Positions 24,480 through 48,120 of a stretch of 64,000 nucleotides of DNA are shown here, piece by piece. Position numbers and translations under genes: made by a program. Source of the stretch: an uncultured Gammaproteobacteria bacterium (GTDB lineage Bacteria; Patescibacteriota; Microgenomatia; Levybacterales; UBA12049); NCBI GenBank assembly GCA_964571255.1, contig CAZNAA010000001.1, forward strand, positions 16,167-80,166, given 5' to 3'. The notes under the pieces are model-generated. The model was not told where the DNA came from, did not search any database, and saw nothing but the letters and a program-made list of their open reading frames with translations. Each line of letters starts with the position of its first letter. Position 1 is the first letter of the stretch.

Positions 24480-25175
24480 TTAATCGATGAATTGGAGAGT
24501 ATTAACTATTTTTTCAATATCAGTTATTTCGCTTTCCCAGGAGCTTATTTCTATAAGGGTACCATTTTTATCTATAATTGTTCCTTTTGTATAACTTTTT
24601 TCAGTTTGGTTACCAGAGACATCATATGTAAAATCCACAGCCTTAAAATCGCCAATCACTCTATTTCTCACCTTTGTAAATATCGCATCTAATGAATGTT
24701 GCTCTTCGGGTATTACAGAATTGTTAGAAGTGGAATATATTTTTTCAAAGTTTTTATTGCTTTGATTAACAGAAATTCTGACTTTTATGTTTGATGAAGT
24801 AATATCTTTCTGTTCTATATTCTGGTCAATTAAATCTGCAGCAAAATCACCATTTGAAGATACTTTTAAAGCAGAAGGATAATTTAATCTAAATTTATAC
24901 ATCTTATTAGTATATGTTTTCCAATCAGAATTAGTGGATGGTGATGGTTCAGAAGTTATGATGGGAGTAGGATTGGATTGTTGAGCATATTGATTTATTC
25001 GGGTAGAATTATTTTTTTGTGTATCCATATAATAAGCTCCTCCACCCACAACGAGGAGTAGTACAATTACTCCTAAAATATTTAGAGAATTACCTCTTGG
25101 ATTATGAACAGGATGTTGGACGGTTTGGTTAGGAGTTTCGGCAGGATTTACTGATTGATTTGGACTATGCTCCAT
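24480..25175 (-). CDS. Hypothetical membrane-anchored protein
   Basis: N-terminal TM (ILGVIVLLLVVGGGAYY) followed by an extracytoplasmic domain. Confidence 0.35.
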   Translation of the reverse strand: MEHSPNQSVNPAETPNQTVQHPVHNPRGNSLNILGVIVLLLVVGGGAYYMDTQKNNSTRINQYAQQSNPTPIITSEPSPSTNSDWKTYTNKMYKFRLNYPSALKVSSNGDFAADLIDQNIEQKDITSSNIKVRISVNQSNKNFEKIYSTSNNSVIPEEQHSLDAIFTKVRNRVIGDFKAVDFTYDVSGNQTEKSYTKGTIIDKNGTLIEISSWESEITDIEKIVNTLQFID

Positions 25176-25217
25176 AAAATTAATATTTCAGAACGATGAT
25201 TGTTCATTGAAGATATG

Positions 25218-25289
25218 CAGGGGTAGAGGGATTCGAACCCCCAGGCTCCGCTTTGGAGGCGGATCGTTTAGCCATTAACGGATACCCCT
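25218..25289 (-). tRNA. tRNA-Trp (anticodon CCA)
   Basis: Manual fold: acceptor AGGGGTA/TACCCCT, D stem CGTT/AACG, anticodon stem TCCGC/GCGGA with loop CTCCAAA, T arm GGGGG-TTCGAAT-CCCTC, discriminator G. Confidence 0.8.
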
Positions 25290-25940
25290 GTACGGGACGT
25301 AAAAGCATTATATATAGCTTCCAGTTCTTTTGCAATTTTATGATCATAATAACAAATTGCCACACATCCTTGATAGTTCTTTTTAGTTCGTTTCATGGTA
25401 TGTGACTTATGATAACTGTTATGAAACTGAGACAAGGGGATATTTGTGACTTTGGACCAAAATTCTTTTTGTATTTTGTCATTATGGTAGTCATGTATAT
25501 GGACTAGCGCTCGAAATTTAGATTCATCAATTTTAAAACTTTTTCTTAAAAGAAAAAGAAAGTTGTGAACTAAGGTTGAATCAGAATTTGTAAAACGAAT
25601 ATATGTAGTTATTTTATTTCCCTCGCACCACCATATAAGTGCACAAGATAATTTAGTTAAATTCCTAGAAAGAGTAATCTCTTTAATTAGCTTAGTTGCT
25701 AACGTTTTACTAATCTCTTTTTCTTGATTTTTCTTAGTTAACTTAAGCTGAACAGTTTTCTTGTCCTGATCTTTCTCTATCTTGTAATCGTTGGAGTGCT
25801 TTACTGTTAAGCTTTATTCCTGAAAGCCATACTGAAGCAGTACTTTTTGCAATGAGTAGTATCTTTGCTATTTCCTCAAGTGAATAACCCTTTTCTCGAA
25901 GTGATATAGCTTGGGTTTTCTTATTTTCACTGTAAGACAT
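25268..25940 (-). pseudogene. Decayed HTH + LAGLIDADG-like endonuclease gene (two frames), 3' end running into tRNA-Trp
   Basis: A 65-aa HTH ORF (SLREKGYSLEEIAKIL...VWLSGIKLN) is followed, after a frame break, by about 155 aa (LSCALIWWCEGNKITTYIRFTNSDSTLVHNFLFLLRKSF...). The second part is homologous to the intact gene at 27069-27722. Confidence 0.45.
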
Positions 25941-26027
25941 TATATAATCTACTATTAGCGTACGATTATTTCTGCATAAAGTCTATAATAAAAAATAGTT
26001 TAAGTTTGAAGTCTAAAGAAAGAGTTA

Positions 26028-26342
26028 TTAGTGGAGGAAGTCTTTAGAAGGCCTTGGAAGTCGTACAGGACATTCGTCTACTTGGATCCATTTTTTGGGA
26101 ACTTCACAGGAAGAAGAGAATGATTGGCATTTTCCATTTTTTGGATTTTTTGCATAAGTAATTTCTGCAAGACATACAGGAATTGGTGTAGGGGTGGGAG
26201 TGTTCTTAATAGGTCTAATTTTATACACAGGTTTTTCAATAATAGTGAGTCCTGCATGTTCTACTGCAAATACATGGGAAGAAACAATAAAAGATAGGGA
26301 AAAGAGGAGGGACAGAGTAACTACTGACTTAATAATACTCAT
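26028..26342 (-). CDS. Small secreted protein (signal peptide), unknown function
   Basis: Likely start at the internal Met (MSIIKSVVTLSLLFSL...VFA). Its ATG overlaps the L33 stop as ATGA. Confidence 0.4.
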   Translation of the reverse strand: MSIIKSVVTLSLLFSLSFIVSSHVFAVEHAGLTIIEKPVYKIRPIKNTPTPTPIPVCLAEITYAKNPKNGKCQSFSSSCEVPKKWIQVDECPVRLPRPSKDFLH

Positions 26343-26518
26343 TATTTTAACTTTTCTGTCTCTTTGTGTTCGGTAATCTTTCTGCACTTATTGCAGTACT
26401 TTTTCAAAAGAAGTTTTTCAGGAGTTTCCATTTTGTTTTTTTGAGTAACATAATTTCTATGTTTACACACAGAACAGGTTAACCCAATAGTAATACGGTG
26501 ATCGCCCTTTTTTGCCAT
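26342..26518 (-). CDS. rpmG: 50S ribosomal protein L33
   Basis: 58 aa, below the ORF-track cutoff. Manual translation gives MAKKGDHRITIGLTCSVCKHRNYVTQKNKMETPEKLLLKKYCNKCRKITEHKETEKLK, the typical L33 Cys4 motif. Confidence 0.8.
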   Translation of the reverse strand: MAKKGDHRITIGLTCSVCKHRNYVTQKNKMETPEKLLLKKYCNKCRKITEHKETEKLK

Positions 26519-26688
26519 AGGGGTATTATACCTAAATCTATGGGTTCTATCAACTCTCTTTTTATTTGACAGAAAAAGGAGGGTGAGTAAAGATAAAAGA
26601 GATGAATAAATGAAGGATTGGACTAACTCTTTTATATCTTGCCTTTCTCCTAGCTGCTATTGGAGGAGTAGGGCAACTTCTAACGAAT

Positions 26689-27003
26689 TTGCCTGCCATT
26701 AGAGAACATTTTAGCTATGAAGTAGAGCAGTATTGGTTTAATAGACTCACGGCAAGTCTTATTTTAGGAAGTACCGGATTATTTTTTGGTGTACTGATAA
26801 AAGGAATAGGGATATATTTTCTTCGGGAAAAAGAATTATTTACTGCTGGGAAGATTATTCTTTTGGCAAGTATCTTGCCTCACATAGTAAGTTTTATTAC
26901 ACTTCCCATTCTTACTCCAACTGATTGGTCTCATATGATCACTCACGGAGTAATTATTCTTTTTATTCCTCTGGGGGTCTATTTAGTTCAAAAAAAAGGA
27001 TGA
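26689..27003 (+). CDS. Small membrane protein (3 predicted TM), hypothetical
   Basis: Three hydrophobic helices. Stop codon overlaps the 3' end of the opposite-strand tRNA-Thr. Confidence 0.35.
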   Translation: MPAIREHFSYEVEQYWFNRLTASLILGSTGLFFGVLIKGIGIYFLREKELFTAGKIILLASILPHIVSFITLPILTPTDWSHMITHGVIILFIPLGVYLVQKKG

Positions 27004-27074
27004 GCCTAGAGCGAGAATCGGACTCGCGACTTCTTCCTTACCATGGAAGCGTTCTGCCACTGAACTACCTAGGC
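27003..27074 (-). tRNA. tRNA-Thr (anticodon GGT)
   Basis: Manual fold: acceptor GCCTAGG/TCTAGGC, D stem GTTC/GAAC, anticodon stem CTTCC/GGAAG with loop ATGGTAA, T arm GCGAG-TCCGATT-CTCGC. Confidence 0.8.
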
Positions 27075-27722
27075 AACAGAAATATTTTCTATTTCTTTCA
27101 TAATCCAACTCTTTAGTTTCATATTACTTGCTGTAATTGTGCACACACCAAATTCTGATTTTCTTTTATATGTTCCTTTTCCTTGAGTTGGAATCTGGAC
27201 TATTTTACCAAATTTCTCAGGGAAAACCGATAGCTGATTTGACCAATAGGTTTTTACCTTATTAATATTACTATCGTTGAAACATATAATGCTATAACTA
27301 ATCTTTCTTTCTTCAAGCTGACAAATATCCCGAAGGAACTTTCTGAATGTTTTTATTAACTTAGAGTCTGTATTAGCTACTCTAACATAGTGTTTAGATA
27401 CCTTTTCACCTTCTCCCCAATAAATACCAAGTCCAATACCAAATAATTTGCTTTCCTCTAAAGAAAGGGTAGTTTTGATTTTGAATGGGTCTCCGGTTGG
27501 ATTTGCTTGTATATACGCTGCATCTGACCTCGAACGTCGGGCAATTTGGTATTTTTGCATCCAGTAGGTAATTTTATGCTCGGAGCAATTAAGTTTTTGA
27601 GATAAACTTCTCATGGATAACCCAGATAGATATAATTGTTCAAGTTCTGTCTTTGAAGGAGAGTTAGATGGAATTATAGGCATACCTATTTCTATGATAG
27701 GTATAGTTCCATTTGTTGTCAA
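27069..27722 (-). CDS. Free-standing HTH + LAGLIDADG-like homing endonuclease inserted in the tRNA operon
   Basis: N-terminal HTH (LEQLYLSGLSMRSLSQKLNCSEHKITYWMQKY) and a motif GIGLGIYWGEGEK resembling LAGLIDADG. The 3' end overlaps the tRNA-Thr 5' end by about 6 nt. Confidence 0.55.
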   Translation of the reverse strand: MTTNGTIPIIEIGMPIIPSNSPSKTELEQLYLSGLSMRSLSQKLNCSEHKITYWMQKYQIARRSRSDAAYIQANPTGDPFKIKTTLSLEESKLFGIGLGIYWGEGEKVSKHYVRVANTDSKLIKTFRKFLRDICQLEERKISYSIICFNDSNINKVKTYWSNQLSVFPEKFGKIVQIPTQGKGTYKRKSEFGVCTITASNMKLKSWIMKEIENISVA

Positions 27723-27731
27723 AAGGGTTGT

Positions 27732-27816
27732 GCTGGATGAAGGATTTGCACCTCCGTAGTCCTTTCGGACGCTTGATCTACAGTCAAGTGCGATTGACTA
27801 CTCCGCCAATCCAGCA
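27732..27816 (-). tRNA. tRNA-Tyr (anticodon GTA), long variable arm
   Basis: Manual fold: acceptor GCTGGAT/ATCCAGC, anticodon stem CTTGA/TCAAG with loop CTGTAGA, 16-nt variable arm, T arm GGAGG-TGCAAAT-CCTTC. Confidence 0.75.
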
Positions 27817-27837
27817 AGGTTAAACGATATGTAAGGG

Positions 27838-27909
27838 AGCCGACTGTCGGGATTGAACCGACGACCTGATGTTTACAAAACAACTGCTCTACCGCTGAGC
27901 TAAGTCGGC
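27838..27909 (-). tRNA. tRNA-Thr (anticodon TGT)
   Basis: Manual fold: acceptor GCCGACT/AGTCGGC, D stem GCTC/GAGC, anticodon loop TTTGTAA (stem has one U-U mismatch), T arm GTCGG-TTCAATC-CCGAC. Confidence 0.65.
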
Positions 27910-28212
27910 ACTGTATGAGATATTATACTCAAATACCCATAAAAAAACCATACAGAATTGTATGGTTTGATAAATAATACTCCTTGATATCGATTCCGCT
28001 GAACTTTTCCCTAAGGTTGTGTAAACAGGAAGGCTCGATCTTTTACCTCGGTAAAAGAAAATGCACCTCGTGATCAAGCTTTGCTTGATTACCTCAGAAA
28101 AATAGACGTAGAGAAAAATAAATCAGCGTCCTCGGTTATCAAAGAGCAGCTAAAGTATACGACTGGGAAGGTAGGGAGTCAAGTGATATAGTAGTCTCTC
28201 GGGAAAATGACG

Positions 28213-43827: not shown

Positions 43828-44811
43828 TCTTTAGGTTTATAAGCTCTTTAACAATCGAAAAGTGGTAGGGAATTTAAGAATTTGGACTTCCCTTATCAGT
43901 TACGCACTGATATTTTTTGTCCTTATTCATTGATAGAGAATAAAAACTCTGTCATATTTTTTTGAGAATTTGATCCTGGTTCAGGATGAACGCTGGCGGC
44001 GTGCCTTAGGCATGCAAGTCGAACGAAAAAGTCGCAAGATAATTTAGTGGCAGACGGGTGAGTAACGCGTAGGAATCTACCCCTGGGAATCGCATAGCCC
44101 TCCGAAAGGAGGGGTAATACGATATGGTCTCGCAAGAGTAAAGGACTTAACGGTCCGCCGAGGGAGGAGCCTGCGTCCTATCAGCTTGTTGGTGAGGTAA
44201 TGGCTTACCAAGGCGATGACGGGTAGCTGGACTGAGAGGTTGATCAGCCACAACTGCACTGAGACACGGGCAGTACACCTACGGGTGGCAGCAACTGGGA
44301 ATATTCGGCAATGGACGAAAGTCTGACCGAGCGACGCCGCGTGGAGGAAGACGGCCTTCGGGTTGTAAACTCCTTTTGCCAAGCCCTTCACGGCTTGGAG
44401 AATAAGCCTCTACTAACTACGTGCCAGAAGTCTCGGTAATACGTAGGAGGCAAGCGTTATCCGGATTTATTGGGCGTAAAGTGTGCGTAGGCGTTCTTTC
44501 AAGTCATGGCTTAAAGACCGGGGCTTACCCTCGGATTTGGTTGTGATACTGGGAGAATTGAGGATTGACAGGGGTGCTGGAACAGTTAATGTAGCAGTGA
44601 AATGCGTTGATATTAACTGGAACACCGATGGCGAAGGCAGGCACCTGGGTTATTCCTGACGCTGAGGCACGAAAGCTAGGGGAGCGAAACAGATTAGATA
44701 CCTGTGTAGTCCTAGCTGTAAACGATGTCCGCTAGCTATCACTCACCAAGGATACAAGGGAGTACTTTGTATTTTTAGTGAGTGGTGGTGTAAGCTAACG
44801 CGTTAAGCGGA

Positions 44812-44871
<60 letters not shown>

Positions 44872-44989
44872 CCGGTGGAGCGTGTGGTTCAATTCGAGAC
44901 AAAGCGAAAAACCTTACCAAGGTTTGACATCTTACCGTTTTATACCTATGGAAACACTGGTAGATCCGAAAGGATGGTAAGACAGGTGT

Positions 44990-45024
<35 letters not shown>

Positions 45025-45321
45025 CCCTTAAGTGGGGAAACGAGCGCAACCCCCGCTGAATGTTAAATATTCATTCGGGACAGCCCCAATTATTTGGGGA
45101 GGAAGGAGGGGAAGACGTCAAGTCAGCACGGCCCTTATACCTTGGGATACACACACCCTACAATGGCGAATAACAACGTGTTGCTAGCAGGTAACTGCAT
45201 GCTAATCACTTAAATTTCGCCTCAGTTCAGATTGAGGTCTGCAACTCGACCTCATGAAGTCGGAATCGGTAGTAATCGCGGATCAGAAGGCCGCGGTGAA
45301 TACGTTCTCGGGTCTTGTACA

Positions 45322-46102
45322 AATTAAATGCGCCTGGCAGTTTAAAAGACAAGATGGTGAAAATCCATCCTAGTAGTTGAAGAACAGGACCTCTCTTGTA
45401 AAAGAAGGTCTGAAGGGTTCGATGTAACGAAGAGCAGCCTAGATATAAAAAAGTGTTTCGACTCTTAGGTGTACTAAGAGGAAGAAAACAAGAAAAGCTT
45501 TTTAGGATGTTTGAAATTGTTTTTTAAATGACCCAGGGAGATCCTATACTGACAGAACACATAATTGAGTATAGGAAGTCAGCTGATTCCATAGTATTTA
45601 AATAGGTGTATACTTATTTAGAGAAGGGATGAACTCTAAACTAAATCCATATTATCTTGTTGGTTTGGTAGATGGAGAAGGATGTTTCTGCGTTTCTTTT
45701 AACAATCATAAATCTCATCGATTAATTGAAGTAAGACTTCTTTTTGAAATTGAACTTCGAGAAGACGATAAAGAGATTTTAGAACGAGTAAAAGAGACTC
45801 TTGGTTGCGGTAATATTTATTATCTTAACTATAAGCGATATCAAAAATGGAGACCTCACTATAAGTATAAGGTTTCTAACTTAAAAGATATCACTGAGAA
45901 AATTATTCCTTTTTTTACTACCTATCCTTTACAAGCTAAGAAAAAGGAGAGTTTTAATAAATTCTCTGAGGTTGCAAAGCTTATGCTTCGTAAATCTCAT
46001 CTTAGTGAAGAAGGTATTCAACATATAAAAGATTGGCAAGAGACTCGCTGGATGCGGGAAATCCGCACGTCCAGTGGGGAGGAACAGGTTTCTGATTCCA
46101 AT
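45322..46102 (+). mobile_element. Putative self-splicing intron in 16S rRNA (inserted between CTTGTACA and CACCGCCCGTC, E. coli ~1391-1393)
   Basis: The conserved string TTGTACACACCGCCCGTC is split at this point. The insert carries a homing endonuclease ORF. Boundaries are approximate, within about 2 nt. Confidence 0.6.
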
Positions 46103-47251: not shown

Positions 47252-47323
47252 GGCGCGGTGGCGAAGCGGTAACGCAGGGGTCTGCAAAACCTCCATGCAC
47301 GGGTTCGATCCCCGTTCGCGCCT
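47252..47323 (+). tRNA. tRNA-Cys (anticodon GCA)
   Basis: Manual fold: acceptor GGCGCGG/TCGCGCC, anticodon stem GGGGT/ACCTC with loop CTGCAAA, T arm ACGGG-TTCGATC-CCCGT, discriminator U. Confidence 0.8.
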
Positions 47324-47352
47324 CACTGTTTTTATCTTTCTAAACTATATCT

Positions 47353-47553
47353 ATGAAAGAACAACTAAAACGAGTTGTAAGACCAATAATTGAAACAGGC
47401 GGACCTTTAGCAAAAGGTATTGATGTGATTGGTATGGTTTATGGAGTAATAGCTCCTCATTTATTACTTGCAGCTTGGTCGGTTATTACGTGGGGATTAA
47501 CCGATAAAATAGAAAAGTGGGCAAAATCTCCAGCTCGGTCTAAAATGGCATAG
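47353..47553 (+). CDS. Hypothetical small membrane protein
   Basis: 66-aa ORF with one hydrophobic helix. Confidence 0.3.
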   Translation: MKEQLKRVVRPIIETGGPLAKGIDVIGMVYGVIAPHLLLAAWSVITWGLTDKIEKWAKSPARSKMA

Positions 47554-47557
47554 TATT

Positions 47558-47941
47558 ATGGAAAAAGAACAGAAAGAACACACACAATCGAAAGAAAAAG
47601 AGTATGGAGAAGATGGGCATAGTGAGAAACAGCTTGATTTAGACGCAGAAATAGCTGCAGGGGAGTGGACACATCTCAAAAATTTTAAAACCTATCAACA
47701 AAGGTCCCGCCAAGGCAAAATTATTGCTATGCATAAGGCTGTTTCTAATAGACTTCAACAACTGGAGAAACTCTATTATCCCTTGGTTGGAAAGTATCCT
47801 CAGAAGGCACTAAAGCTTCTCCAAGAGTTAAAACAACTTCGAACCATGCAAGAGTACCTTTTACAATGTTTAGTCTGGGAAGAAAAAAACGAATTAACCT
47901 CCGATTTAGTACCCTCTGAGCTATGGGAGCTTATTTCCTAG
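47558..47941 (+). CDS. Hypothetical protein
   Basis: 127-aa ORF, charged and coiled-coil-like. Confidence 0.3.
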   Translation: MEKEQKEHTQSKEKEYGEDGHSEKQLDLDAEIAAGEWTHLKNFKTYQQRSRQGKIIAMHKAVSNRLQQLEKLYYPLVGKYPQKALKLLQELKQLRTMQEYLLQCLVWEEKNELTSDLVPSELWELIS

Positions 47942-47977
47942 ACGAAAAGGCAAGTTTTTAGTATAATAGGGAAACTT

Positions 47978-48049
47978 GGGTGCATAGTTCAGCGGTAGAA
48001 CGCTTTCCTGATAAGAAAGAGGTGCATGGTCCGACTCCATGTGCACCCA
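47978..48049 (+). tRNA. tRNA-Ile (anticodon GAT), free-standing
   Basis: Manual fold: acceptor GGGTGCA/TGCACCC, D stem GTTC/GAAC, anticodon stem CTTTC/GAAAG with loop CTGATAA, T arm CATGG-TCCGACT-CCATG. Preceded by a TATAAT-like box. Confidence 0.8.
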
Positions 48050-48120
48050 CAGATTTGGATCGTTGGGAATGGTGCTTGCCACTCCCGCGATCGCTGGAAA
48101 ACTAAACAATTCAAAATTCA

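Follow-up and report, generated by a model that had tools for sequence, protein, structure and literature searches.

Homing endonucleases are known to persist in conserved genes when a self-splicing intron or an intein shelters them, or, in phages, as free-standing genes. In collaborative homing, known from T4-like and cyanophage systems, a free-standing homing endonuclease gene lies beside an intron-containing gene. LAGLIDADG proteins can serve as group I intron maturases, and WhiA (DUF199), widely conserved in Gram-positive bacteria, is a domesticated LAGLIDADG plus helix-turn-helix (HTH) transcription factor, with two degenerate LAGLIDADG domains that lack catalytic acids and with its HTH at the C-terminus. 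T4 SegB is a free-standing GIY-YIG homing endonuclease encoded in the T4 tRNA gene cluster (PMC13096335, PMC2988022). In CPR bacteria, LAGLIDADG endonucleases occur in rRNA introns and insertions (PMC11270868), and group I introns occur in the tRNAs of Patescibacteria (PMC13011429). The accessible portion of the latter paper discusses only intron-encoded endonuclease genes and mentions no ORF upstream of a tRNA.

The window analysed here, a stretch of 64,000 nucleotides, carries two predicted endonuclease genes, one of family 1 and one of family 2, that each end inside a tRNA gene. As with SegB, these would be free-standing endonuclease genes among tRNA genes, exploiting a conserved region for preferential inheritance. 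A search for families 1 and 2 in viral contigs found neither, apart from one distant relative, which directly follows an array of 9 tRNAs on an IMG/VR contig of 230 kb; this outcome counts against the homing reading put forward below. SegB differs in its fold, GIY-YIG rather than LAGLIDADG, in belonging to a phage instead of a bacterial chromosome, and in showing neither a strict pairing of one family with one tRNA nor an ORF that runs into the tRNA. The CPR rRNA and tRNA intron systems share with the present genes their phylum, nuclease superfamily and targeting of conserved RNA genes, but their endonucleases lie inside the intervening sequence, whereas the present genes lie outside, at the 5' flank of the RNA gene. 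Elements that enter tRNA genes by means of an integrase insert at the tRNA 3' end with att repeats; here the insertion is at the 5' end, and domain searches of the protein found no integrase or recombinase domain.

Two genes that run into tRNA genes

ARAGORN, Rfam and the ORF calls agree on the minus-strand order given in the initial annotation: tRNA-Thr(TGT), tRNA-Tyr, a family 1 gene, tRNA-Thr(GGT), rpmG, a once-frameshifted paralog of family 2, and tRNA-Trp. The intactness of the four tRNAs, all on the minus strand, had been marked for checking, and ARAGORN and Rfam (at gathering score, 54-67 bits) find every one of them. The features are as follows.

27836..27909, minus strand: tRNA-Thr(TGT), first gene of the cluster (ARAGORN; Rfam tRNA 67.1 bits)
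27730..27815, minus strand: tRNA-Tyr(GTA), upstream neighbour of the family 1 gene (ARAGORN; Rfam 53.9 bits)
27694..27722, minus strand: promoter-like site TTGACA-17-TATCAT (promoter scan, 11/12 positions)
27069..27683, minus strand: family 1 gene, intact, almost certainly 204 aa (HTH and predicted single LAGLIDADG-fold domain)
27002..27074, minus strand: tRNA-Thr(GGT), partner of family 1 (ARAGORN; Rfam 60.4 bits)
26342..26518, minus strand: rpmG (ribosomal protein L33), conserved backbone between both tRNA sites (ORF; Pfam Ribosomal_L33 on the identical gene in locus L167)
25268..25940, minus strand: family 2 gene with a single frameshift (homologue alignment after repair)
25307..25335, minus strand: promoter-like site TTGCAA-17-TATAAT in the last family 2 codons (scan of the window)
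25217..25289, minus strand: tRNA-Trp(CCA), partner of family 2 (ARAGORN; Rfam 54.8 bits)

The family 1 ORF at 27069-27722 (minus strand) is confirmed, with 27069-27683 as its likely coding part. Its translation had been given as 217 aa, a length that needs correction: the real start is almost certainly the ATG at 27683 (M14), for a protein of 204 aa, the same length as the Logan gene call of the identical protein and within the 200-205 aa of its homologues. The TTG at 27722 was rejected as a start codon; it falls in the -35 hexamer of TTGACA-17-TATCAT (27722..27694), one of the two best promoter matches in 25000-28200. The -10 hexamer of this site ends 10 nt before the ATG, so the leader would be very short. 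At the other end of the gene, the reported overlap of about 6 nt with tRNA-Thr is exact: the last 6 nt of the ORF are the first 6 nt of tRNA-Thr(GGT), and the stop codon TAG occupies tRNA nucleotides 4-6. The ORF and the tRNA probably form one transcript.

The family 2 copy contains exactly one frameshift, near 25758-25768, in keeping with the original description of one intact and one decayed gene. Its N-terminal HTH part spans 25743-25940, and the open frame of its LAGLIDADG part runs from about 25813 to the stop codon (25268-25270), which lies 22 nt inside tRNA-Trp (about 20 nt had been claimed). Once repaired, the translation aligns end to end with intact homologues of 221 aa (97-100% coverage, 50-60% identity) and retains all invariant residues. 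The same frameshift is found in a separate Logan assembly of SRR8893623, a run that may also underlie the deposited genome. Alignment of the two copies, a check proposed at the outset, shows them to be homologous but distant, with 22% identity overall and 33% over 61 aa (tblastn E = 6e-6). The final codons of this ORF, which encode the peptide IAKELEAIYN, contain TTGCAA-17-TATAAT in family 2, with its -10 hexamer ending 17 nt before tRNA-Trp +1. This is probably the promoter of tRNA-Trp, and it is intact although the ORF is broken.

Predicted fold and conserved motif

The family 1 protein has an N-terminal HTH at about residues 11-44 and, at about residues 75-203, a single domain predicted with confidence to have the core order alpha-beta-beta-alpha-beta-beta-alpha, as in LAGLIDADG homing endonucleases. 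Within the motif GLGIYWGEGEK, the GEG corresponds to residues 90-92, and E91 and G92 are invariant in alignment A1; E91, the glutamate at the catalytic position, closes the first domain helix (75-91 in the model) on its C-terminal side. The pattern W-x-E-G-x-K is invariant across all three families described below, which share only 15-22% identity (alignment A4), so that the acidic residue sought in the LAGLIDADG-like motif is constant across members and families alike. As regards fold and glutamate, the LAGLIDADG-like character first proposed for the ORF is supported; curated sequence models do not recognise it. None of 33 members matches a Pfam LAGLIDADG model at E <= 1, profile searches of NCBIfam and PDB for a LAGLIDADG match were negative, hhalign against I-CreI gave no significant alignment, and Foldseek gave no significant match. 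The N-terminal HTH matches phage HNH-endonuclease PHROGs (E = 1.5e-5 and 6.7e-8). Both families are described here as predicted endonucleases.

Single-motif LAGLIDADG enzymes (the I-CreI, I-CeuI and I-MsoI type) and I-DmoI/I-Tsp061I share with these proteins one helix ending in an invariant acidic residue plus Gly, a size compatible with a homodimer, and a sporadic distribution with decayed copies. The present proteins, as putative nucleases, differ in their extra HTH, in the free-standing position of their genes at a tRNA 5' end, outside any intron or intein, and in matching no Pfam LAGLIDADG model.

The combination of LAGLIDADG fold and HTH also recalls WhiA, and the proteins might be domesticated DNA-binding accessory factors of that sort, mostly vertically inherited, which bind their own tRNA gene or promoter region, might regulate the tRNA or autoregulate the ORF-tRNA unit, and are no longer, or never were, moved by homing in these lineages. 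We regard this reading as plausible but less likely than a homing role. The window proteins have one LAGLIDADG domain and an N-terminal HTH where WhiA has two domains and a C-terminal HTH, their acidic motif residue is invariant in three families, and their HTH is of a type found on phage homing endonucleases. Evidence on inheritance and site occupancy, which bears on the same question from both sides, is taken up below.

One family, one tRNA gene

Family 1 adjoins tRNA-Thr(GGT) in 79 of 80 GTDB loci, the exception (L050) being a frameshifted copy. Of 62 loci with an intact tRNA, 61 have it in the gene's own orientation at -93 to +41 nt relative to the stop codon, which falls inside the tRNA in 42 of those 61. 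At the other 18 loci the gene adjoins an intron-interrupted tRNA-Thr(GGT), the 5' half of which starts anywhere from 10 nt ahead of the stop codon to 116 nt beyond it (259 nt in L075). Family 2 ends at or inside tRNA-Trp in 79 of 80 metagenome loci, an adjacency seen also in L022, L053 and L054. In a third family, all proteins (7/7, from 9/9 loci) end at or inside tRNA-Tyr, and they do so in gene contexts that are unrelated. Thus family 1 is at home on tRNA-Thr(GGU), family 2 on tRNA-Trp(CCA) and family 3 on tRNA-Tyr(GUA). Recurrence of the geometry in 79/80, 79/80 and 9/9 independent loci excludes chance, and the association with tRNA 5' boundaries, which the initial annotation proposed from two copies, is real and far more general: three subfamilies, each with its own tRNA, across Patescibacteria.

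The two window genes are members of a large superfamily specific to Patescibacteria, whose proteins of about 200-225 aa combine an HTH with one LAGLIDADG-fold domain. In all, 3,023 clusters (50% identity) match at E <= 1e-10, many of them carrying C-terminal tails that are translated tRNA. This superfamily of tRNA-docked endonuclease-like proteins is apparently undescribed so far. That the ORFs might be spurious, or their tRNA overlaps an annotation or assembly error, is suggested by an NCBI record that shortens the first ORF to 163 aa, by the broken frame of the second, and by homologues that mostly appear as 'hypothetical protein' or without a name. The comparative data already refute this, and we give it next to no credence: homologues number in the hundreds at 50-66% identity, intact copies have dN/dS of 0.06-0.22, structure predictions are confident, the geometry is identical in about 170 independent loci from three families, and a separate assembly contains the frameshift too.

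Each gene is preceded by a predicted promoter of its own. A promoter-like site scoring >= 9 precedes 40% of the genes in family 1 and 51% of those in family 2; among control windows, 6-9% contain one. The element embedded in family 2 scores >= 9 in 47 of 64 distinct occupied loci, its -10 hexamer ending 15-18 nt before tRNA-Trp, and synonymous codon choice is biased toward the hexamers (Asn as AAT in 41/41 against a background of 71%; Tyr as TAT in 39/42 against 72%). Family 2 thus appears to write a near-consensus tRNA promoter into its last 10 codons.

The look at gene-minus alleles called for by the initial annotation revealed that the genes are present or absent at one precise site and that some copies have decayed, both of which would be expected of homing-endonuclease genes. 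Among 26 loci gathered through family 2, the family 1 site is empty in 23 and occupied in 3; among 38 gathered through family 1, the family 2 site is empty in 35 and occupied in 3. At 15 of the 23 empty family 1 sites, tRNA-Tyr ends 5-94 nt before tRNA-Thr(GGT). Because no tRNA-Gly lies between them, the proposal that the ORF fills the slot of a tRNA-Gly (glyT) fails. Decayed copies include the window's family 2 gene, frameshifted family 1 genes in L050 and L119, and a 52-aa family 2 remnant in L053. A duplication of the tRNA 5' end occurs in L155, an empty-site locus; the other flanks that were read showed none.

Pairwise identities within family 1 correlate with those of L33, encoded next to it (Spearman 0.73), and the mean identities are comparable (50% against 55% for L33), so inheritance appears largely vertical, which leaves room for a domesticated tRNA-associated factor. 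Discordant pairs exist, such as L059/L073, 40% identical in family 1 and 82% in L33. The closest pair of occupied and empty sites has a flank identity of only about 84%, and therefore no recent gain or loss has been caught. The tRNA alleles of occupied and empty sites show no diagnostic difference, so that escape from self-cleavage would seem to require a target that extends across the insertion junction. The lack of an immunity-giving difference also counts in favour of domestication, as do strong purifying selection, a tRNA linkage that survives local rearrangements and differing neighbourhoods, and the tRNA promoter embedded in family 2 coding sequence. Against it, the gene is missing from the exact site in most relatives and frameshifted or eroded in several, which makes a needed regulator of an essential tRNA unlikely; WhiA, by comparison, is widely conserved. 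The presence of three paralogous families on different tRNAs suggests, moreover, that a mobile nuclease has diversified its targets.

In 18 of the 80 loci of family 1, and in L119, the adjacent tRNA-Thr(GGT) is interrupted at position 36/37 by an intron of about 200-220 nt. These loci resemble collaborative homing in that a free-standing gene adjoins a gene with an ORF-less intron; they differ from the other 62 family 1 loci, where the tRNA is intron-less, and from every family 2 and family 3 partner examined, all intact and intron-less by ARAGORN. An intron found in a minority of partners cannot be a general immunity device. It is also too short for a gene of about 200 codons and lies downstream of it. 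The family 1 ORF was rejected as intron- or intein-encoded, being placed between tRNA genes with a predicted promoter of its own, and an Rfam scan found no intron family in the window and no Rfam family around the ORF. Could the protein act on RNA instead, as a maturase-like or tRNA-processing factor that splices the tRNA-Thr(GGU) intron or aids 5' maturation of the mRNA-embedded tRNA? The maturase capability of LAGLIDADG proteins, the introns just described and the probable co-transcription of family 1 with its tRNA speak for such a role. We consider it improbable, given the predominance of intron-less partners, an intron without the gene in L133, the classical DNA-binding character of the N-terminal HTH, and the fact that in most relatives the same tRNAs mature in the absence of the protein. 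The tRNA-Thr(GGU) intron matches the 'divergent group I introns' described in the accessible portion of PMC13011429.

A possible route of homing at tRNA 5' ends

Our preferred explanation, held with guarded confidence, is that these are free-standing homing-endonuclease genes, or very recent derivatives of them, specialised on the 5' flank of one tRNA gene. The protein would work as a homodimer and cut the DNA of gene-less alleles at or near the junction of the upstream flank with the tRNA 5' end, after which repair from the occupied allele would copy the gene in. The highly conserved tRNA would supply both recognition sequence and homology arm. Insertion is proposed to be harmless because the element re-supplies tRNA transcription, which family 2 may do through its embedded promoter and family 1 through read-through from its own. 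Where the stop codon falls within the tRNA, cleavage by RNase P would produce an mRNA that lacks a stop, which may hold the endonuclease at a low level. After fixation, inheritance would be mostly vertical, and the gene could decay yet keep the 3' end that bears the promoter; the frameshifted family 2 copy of the window, with its promoter intact, fits this course.

More tentatively, and on balance with some doubt, the superfamily might constitute a phylum-wide guild: thousands of clusters of tRNA-specific free-standing LAGLIDADG elements on the 5' flanks of at least tRNA-Thr(GGU), tRNA-Trp(CCA) and tRNA-Tyr(GUA), made harmless by an embedded promoter or co-transcription, with a stop in the tRNA so that 5' processing governs expression. 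Some members may have been co-opted as regulators of tRNA genes.

The superfamily would account for between several hundred and several thousand of the 'hypothetical proteins' in reduced Patescibacteria genomes. It also flags a systematic annotation problem: because these ORFs overlap tRNAs, gene callers truncate them, as in the NCBI record here, or read through the tRNA. If active, the proteins would be ready-made compact meganucleases, naturally diversified in their tRNA-gene specificities. The arrangement opens to testing both selection on dual-coding promoter/protein segments and the throttling of a potentially toxic nuclease by RNase P processing of an mRNA-tRNA co-transcript. If the preferred explanation is true, docking on the 5' edge of a tRNA and re-supplying its promoter would be a distinct survival strategy for a chromosomal family, and a third 'safe harbour' for homing endonucleases beside introns and inteins.

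Two tRNA-docked genes in the window

Four tRNA genes mark the locus. The initial annotation had asked whether they are intact; all four are called by ARAGORN and exceed the Rfam gathering score, at 54-67 bits.

Features of the window locus
27836-27909, minus strand: tRNA-Thr(tgt), by ARAGORN and Rfam
27730-27815, minus strand: tRNA-Tyr(gta), by ARAGORN and Rfam
27002-27074, minus strand: tRNA-Thr(ggt), by ARAGORN and Rfam
26525-26553, minus strand: promoter-like site TTGATA-17-TATAAT, 11/12, just upstream of rpmG
26342-26518, minus strand: rpmG, as an ORF
25217-25289, minus strand: tRNA-Trp(cca), by ARAGORN and Rfam

A reading frame is open from 27722 to 27069 (minus strand) between tRNA-Tyr and tRNA-Thr(ggt), and was first read as a protein of 217 aa. 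Homologs of this gene type, here called family 1, are 200-205 aa long and cover about 89% of that reading, and an identical protein in a Logan gene call has 204 aa. Among promoter-like sites in 25000-28200, one of the two top-scoring is TTGACA-17-TATCAT (27722..27694, minus strand, 11/12 matches); its -35 hexamer at 27722 includes the supposed TTG start, and its -10 hexamer ends 10 nt before an ATG at 27683. The gene is therefore almost certainly 27683-27069, encoding 204 aa, with its own predicted promoter and almost no leader. Its stop codon does lie inside tRNA-Thr, as first proposed, the TAG being tRNA nucleotides 4-6. A promoter-like site scoring at least 9 precedes 40% of the genes in family 1 and 51% of those in family 2, the type of the window's second copy; in control windows the figure is 6-9%.

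The family 2 copy, 25940-25268 (minus strand), reads MSYSENKK...SGQ in one frame and then ...KKTVQLK...GVSVNG* in another. The initial annotation was right to call it frame-broken, and exactly one frameshift, near 25758-25768, accounts for the break. The reported overlap with tRNA-Trp also stands, at 22 nt, with the last seven codons and the stop inside the tRNA. A separate Logan assembly, from run SRR8893623, agrees at each of the 801 aligned bases and contains the frameshift, which excludes an artefact of the assembler though not an error in the reads. Programmed frameshifting was considered and rejected; the shift site, read by eye, has no canonical slippery heptamer, and the copy is treated as a putative pseudogene. 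Searches by tblastn with both proteins found no third copy within the window. The 653 nt that separate tRNA-Cys from tRNA-Ile (47325-47977), considered as a site for one, hold two unrelated small ORFs.

Several other features of the window may be recorded here. Its G+C content is 37.6%, and it is most closely related to Patescibacteria of the Microgenomates group, among them Levy-, Gottesman-, Woese- and Roizmanbacteria. The space from tRNA-Thr(GGT) to tRNA-Trp is filled by the family 2 pseudogene and two ORFs; in many relatives it spans about 170-400 nt, little more than rpmG. One ORF, 26689-27003 (plus strand, opposite tRNA-Thr(GGT)), encodes a predicted membrane protein of 104 aa and, stop codon included, overlaps the tRNA 3' end by 2 nt. 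The other, a secreted-looking ORF at 26028-26387 (minus strand) directly after rpmG, is 104 aa as called in locus L167 and 119 aa if read from an upstream GTG. The 16S rRNA gene, 43958-45369 (plus strand), is 1,412 nt long, though its match covers the full 1,533-position model. tRNA-Cys (47252-47324, plus strand) and tRNA-Ile(GAT) (47978-48050, plus strand) lie 1.9 kb and 2.6 kb downstream of it, with small ORFs separating the three genes from one another, and the Rfam scan of the whole window has no 23S rRNA match; the rRNA operon thus appears to be unlinked.

One family for each tRNA

The initial annotation proposed searching related genomes for the same ORF beside other tRNAs. Three families were found, family 1 with tRNA-Thr, family 2 with tRNA-Trp, and a third with tRNA-Tyr. 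For family 1, one genome per GTDB species was scanned, giving 137 relatives, from which 80 loci were kept; identities are 52-63% in Microgenomates and 37-49% in Saccharibacteria, Paceibacterota/Parcubacteria and Peribacteria. ARAGORN places tRNA-Thr(ggt) downstream on the same strand in 62 of the 80 loci, and from -93 to +41 nt of the stop codon in 61 of these; the sole exception, L050, is a frameshifted copy. The stop falls inside the tRNA in 42 loci, most commonly as the TAG of U8-A9-G10. Family 2 has more than 215 homologs of about 221 aa. Of its 80 metagenome loci, 79 have the gene ending at or within tRNA-Trp(cca) and the one left runs off its contig; C-terminal peptides such as RGVR*, RGVG* and GAFVNG* are translated tRNA. 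Family 3, seven proteins sharing the motif IRYSDKKLL, ends at or inside tRNA-Tyr(gta) in 9/9 loci amid unrelated neighbors (tyrosyl-tRNA synthetase, type IV pilins, ClpB, EF-Ts); in L161, L162 and L164 the TAA stop consists of anticodon positions 35-36 plus A37. A superfamily profile run over 1.84 billion cluster representatives gave 8,121 matches at E <= 1e-3, of which 3,023 reach E <= 1e-10; many of the matches have tRNA-derived tails.

At three family 3 loci the family 3 gene and tRNA-Tyr directly follow a tyrosyl-tRNA synthetase gene (L162 1704-2960, L164 1661-2920, L165 780-2039). Two more synthetase genes, another of class I (PF00579, possibly TrpRS) and one of class II, lie downstream in L164 and L165.

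The remaining 18 of the 80 family 1 loci seemed to have no tRNA. A tRNA-Thr(GGT) HMM finds a split gene in 18/18, missed by both ARAGORN and Rfam. The 5' half (positions 1-35/36) starts anywhere from 10 nt ahead of the ORF stop to 116 nt past it, or 259 nt past it in L075; the 3' half follows the 5' half at about 200-220 nt, the insertion lying after the anticodon at position 36/37.

Loci with a split tRNA-Thr(GGT)
First nine: L035, L036, L039, L049, L053, L054, L056, L058, L061
Other nine: L062, L063, L065, L066, L070, L071, L074, L075, L078
Example, L039: 4598-4633 and 4845-4882
Two further loci: L119 2436-2702; L133 2448-2717

A family 1 gene stands directly upstream in 19/20 cases, L133 having the intron without the gene. 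Such an insertion is an intron, and it matches the "divergent group I introns" that the retrieved passages of PMC13011429 place at 36/37 of tRNA-Thr(GGU) in Patescibacteria. The same passages state that RF00028 misses Patescibacteria tRNA introns, in agreement with the absence of any Rfam match to the insertion at E <= 1, and do not mention the upstream gene. A role for the proteins as maturases or in tRNA processing is unlikely, given that introns are absent from most partner tRNAs and the gene from most relatives.

Family 2 has a further distinctive feature. Within the codons I-A-K-E-L-E-A-I-Y-N of the window copy lies TTGCAA-17-TATAAT (25335..25307, minus strand), whose -10 hexamer at 25307 ends 17 nt before tRNA-Trp +1. 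An embedded element with its -10 ending 15-18 nt before the tRNA scores at least 9/12 in 47 of 64 distinct occupied family 2 loci and at least 10 in 35 of them. Synonymous sites within the hexamers are biased toward the consensus: Asn is AAT in 41/41 cases versus 71% elsewhere in the same genes, Tyr is TAT in 39/42 versus 72%, and the first codon ends in TT in 42/42. The p-values for this bias, 3e-6 and 0.003, are only indicative, the sequences being related to one another. The family 2 element thus appears to bring the predicted promoter of the tRNA along with it, and a promoter within the 3' coding end would explain why the broken window copy has kept that end intact. Families 1 and 3, unlike family 2, show no consistent embedded element, so their tRNAs are probably co-transcribed from the promoter of the ORF. 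RNase P cleavage of such a joint transcript would remove a stop codon lying inside the tRNA and leave a non-stop mRNA.

Protein architecture

Sequence libraries recognize only the N-terminal helix-turn-helix (HTH), which matches the HTH of phage HNH endonucleases in PHROGs (window protein, E = 1.5e-5; one family 3 member, E = 6.7e-8). The first domain helix closes with GLGIYWGEGEK in the intact window copy and CALIWWCEGNK in the broken one, and W-x-E-G-x-K is invariant in the three families, whose mutual identity is only 15-22%. By sequence position, the conserved acid corresponds to the catalytic acid of LAGLIDADG enzymes. According to the literature, WhiA has lost this acid, whereas the tRNA-linked families have kept it. 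A LAGLIDADG domain was not detected by sequence in Pfam, NCBIfam or a PDB profile search, nor by hhalign against an approximate I-CreI sequence; Foldseek against PDB returned only weak, unrelated alpha/beta folds. The C-terminal domain has no model in Pfam, NCBIfam, PHROGs or PADLOC. Membership in a defense system was considered, and PADLOC gave only a weak HTH match.

Some members (P0120, P0241, P0248, P0250, P0251, P0256, P0266) are 270-280 aa long, with an extra 75-85 aa or so before the HTH that carries motifs such as YDNPxYKKKQS and Cys pairs. Proteins of 520-820 aa (P0283, P0288, P0325, P0340, P0370 and others) also match the profile's HTH part, 7-14 times in tandem. Several of these end in an HNH-like motif, CxxCHxxWEG, so the HTH module is common to another class of putative nucleases. 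The "CAP repeat" of PDB 8vd6 matches the same HTH.

Distribution, inheritance and interpretation

Site occupancy was scored only in loci collected through the other family, as a guard against ascertainment bias. Family 1 fills the site ahead of tRNA-Thr(ggt) in 3 loci and is missing from it in 23; family 2 fills the site ahead of tRNA-Trp in 3, one of these holding a 52-aa remnant, and is missing from it in 35. At 15 of the 23 empty family 1 sites, 5-94 nt separate the end of tRNA-Tyr from tRNA-Thr, with no tRNA-Gly between them. The initial annotation held that the ORF occupies the slot of a tRNA-Gly, to be recovered in alleles lacking the gene. ARAGORN finds no tRNA-Gly in the 64-kb window and the empty sites of relatives carry none, so the slot idea is not supported. 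Decay is seen beyond the window too: L050 and L119 carry frameshifted family 1 genes, and L053 a remnant of family 2. Intact copies are under purifying selection, with dN/dS of 0.06-0.22 between family 1 pairs and 0.07-0.18 between family 2 pairs.

Pairwise identities of family 1 and the adjacent L33 correlate across 32 loci (Spearman 0.73), with means of 50% and 55%; L33, at 58 aa, is a host marker of low resolution, and NusG was present in only 5 loci. Outlier pairs differ strongly, at 40% for family 1 versus 82% for L33 in L059/L073 and 50% versus 82% in L016/L021. The correlation and its outliers suggest inheritance that is mostly vertical, or transfer limited to close relatives, with hints of replacement. 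Immunity through a change in the tRNA was considered. Aligned tRNA-Thr and tRNA-Trp sequences have no position that distinguishes occupied from empty sites; the differences are confined to paired stem positions and probably follow taxonomy. Flanks of the closest occupied/empty pair are only about 84% identical, too divergent to resolve the breakpoints of insertion.

Two loci carry possible local rearrangements. In L155, at a site without a family 1 gene, a truncated tRNA-Thr 5' half (GCCGATGTAGCTCAGTGGTAGAGCA, 2548-2574) lies 11 nt upstream of an intact tRNA-Thr(GGT) (2586-2659) and may be the footprint of a past insertion or deletion. In L008 (2228-2430), the tRNA-Tyr 3' end AGTCCCTCACCCAGCAC is repeated about 95 nt downstream, the repeats bracketing a hairpin-rich segment that comes shortly before the family 1 promoter; the arrangement resembles a small insertion that duplicated its target at the 3' end of tRNA-Tyr.

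A phage origin was rejected on the evidence of IMG/VR, where family 1 has no relative and family 2 only one, distant. The latter (L166 3001-3654; 33% identity to family 2; motif LCVGLYWGEGNK) lies on a 230-kb high-GC contig classed as viral, directly after an array of nine tRNAs (Ser, three Gly, three Ala, Trp, Cys), and no tRNA was found downstream of it.

Taken together, the predicted properties of these genes fit free-standing homing-endonuclease genes specialized on the 5' flanks of individual tRNA genes. To this reading belong the predicted LAGLIDADG fold with its retained acidic residue, the HTH of homing-endonuclease type, three paralogous families, each with its own highly conserved RNA gene as partner, exact presence or absence at that site, and selected copies beside decayed ones. 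Some points sit less well with homing: no mobility event was caught, divergence largely follows the host, and occupied alleles have no visible immunity unless the target spans the insertion junction. These same points make a domesticated WhiA-like factor that binds tRNA genes a serious rival, one we consider possible rather than probable. For a homing endonuclease, the promoter arrangement would be a way for insertion at a tRNA flank to be neutral.

A full-text literature search found no description of these tRNA-docked genes. The nearest work concerns intron-encoded endonucleases in CPR rRNA genes (PMC11270868) and, in the passages retrieved, group I introns in Patescibacteria tRNAs (PMC13011429). 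As an element type, the LAGLIDADG homing-endonuclease gene is already known. What is new, as far as we can tell, is its niche: the tRNA 5' flank, with an ORF reaching into the tRNA, an embedded promoter for that tRNA, and a separate family for each tRNA.
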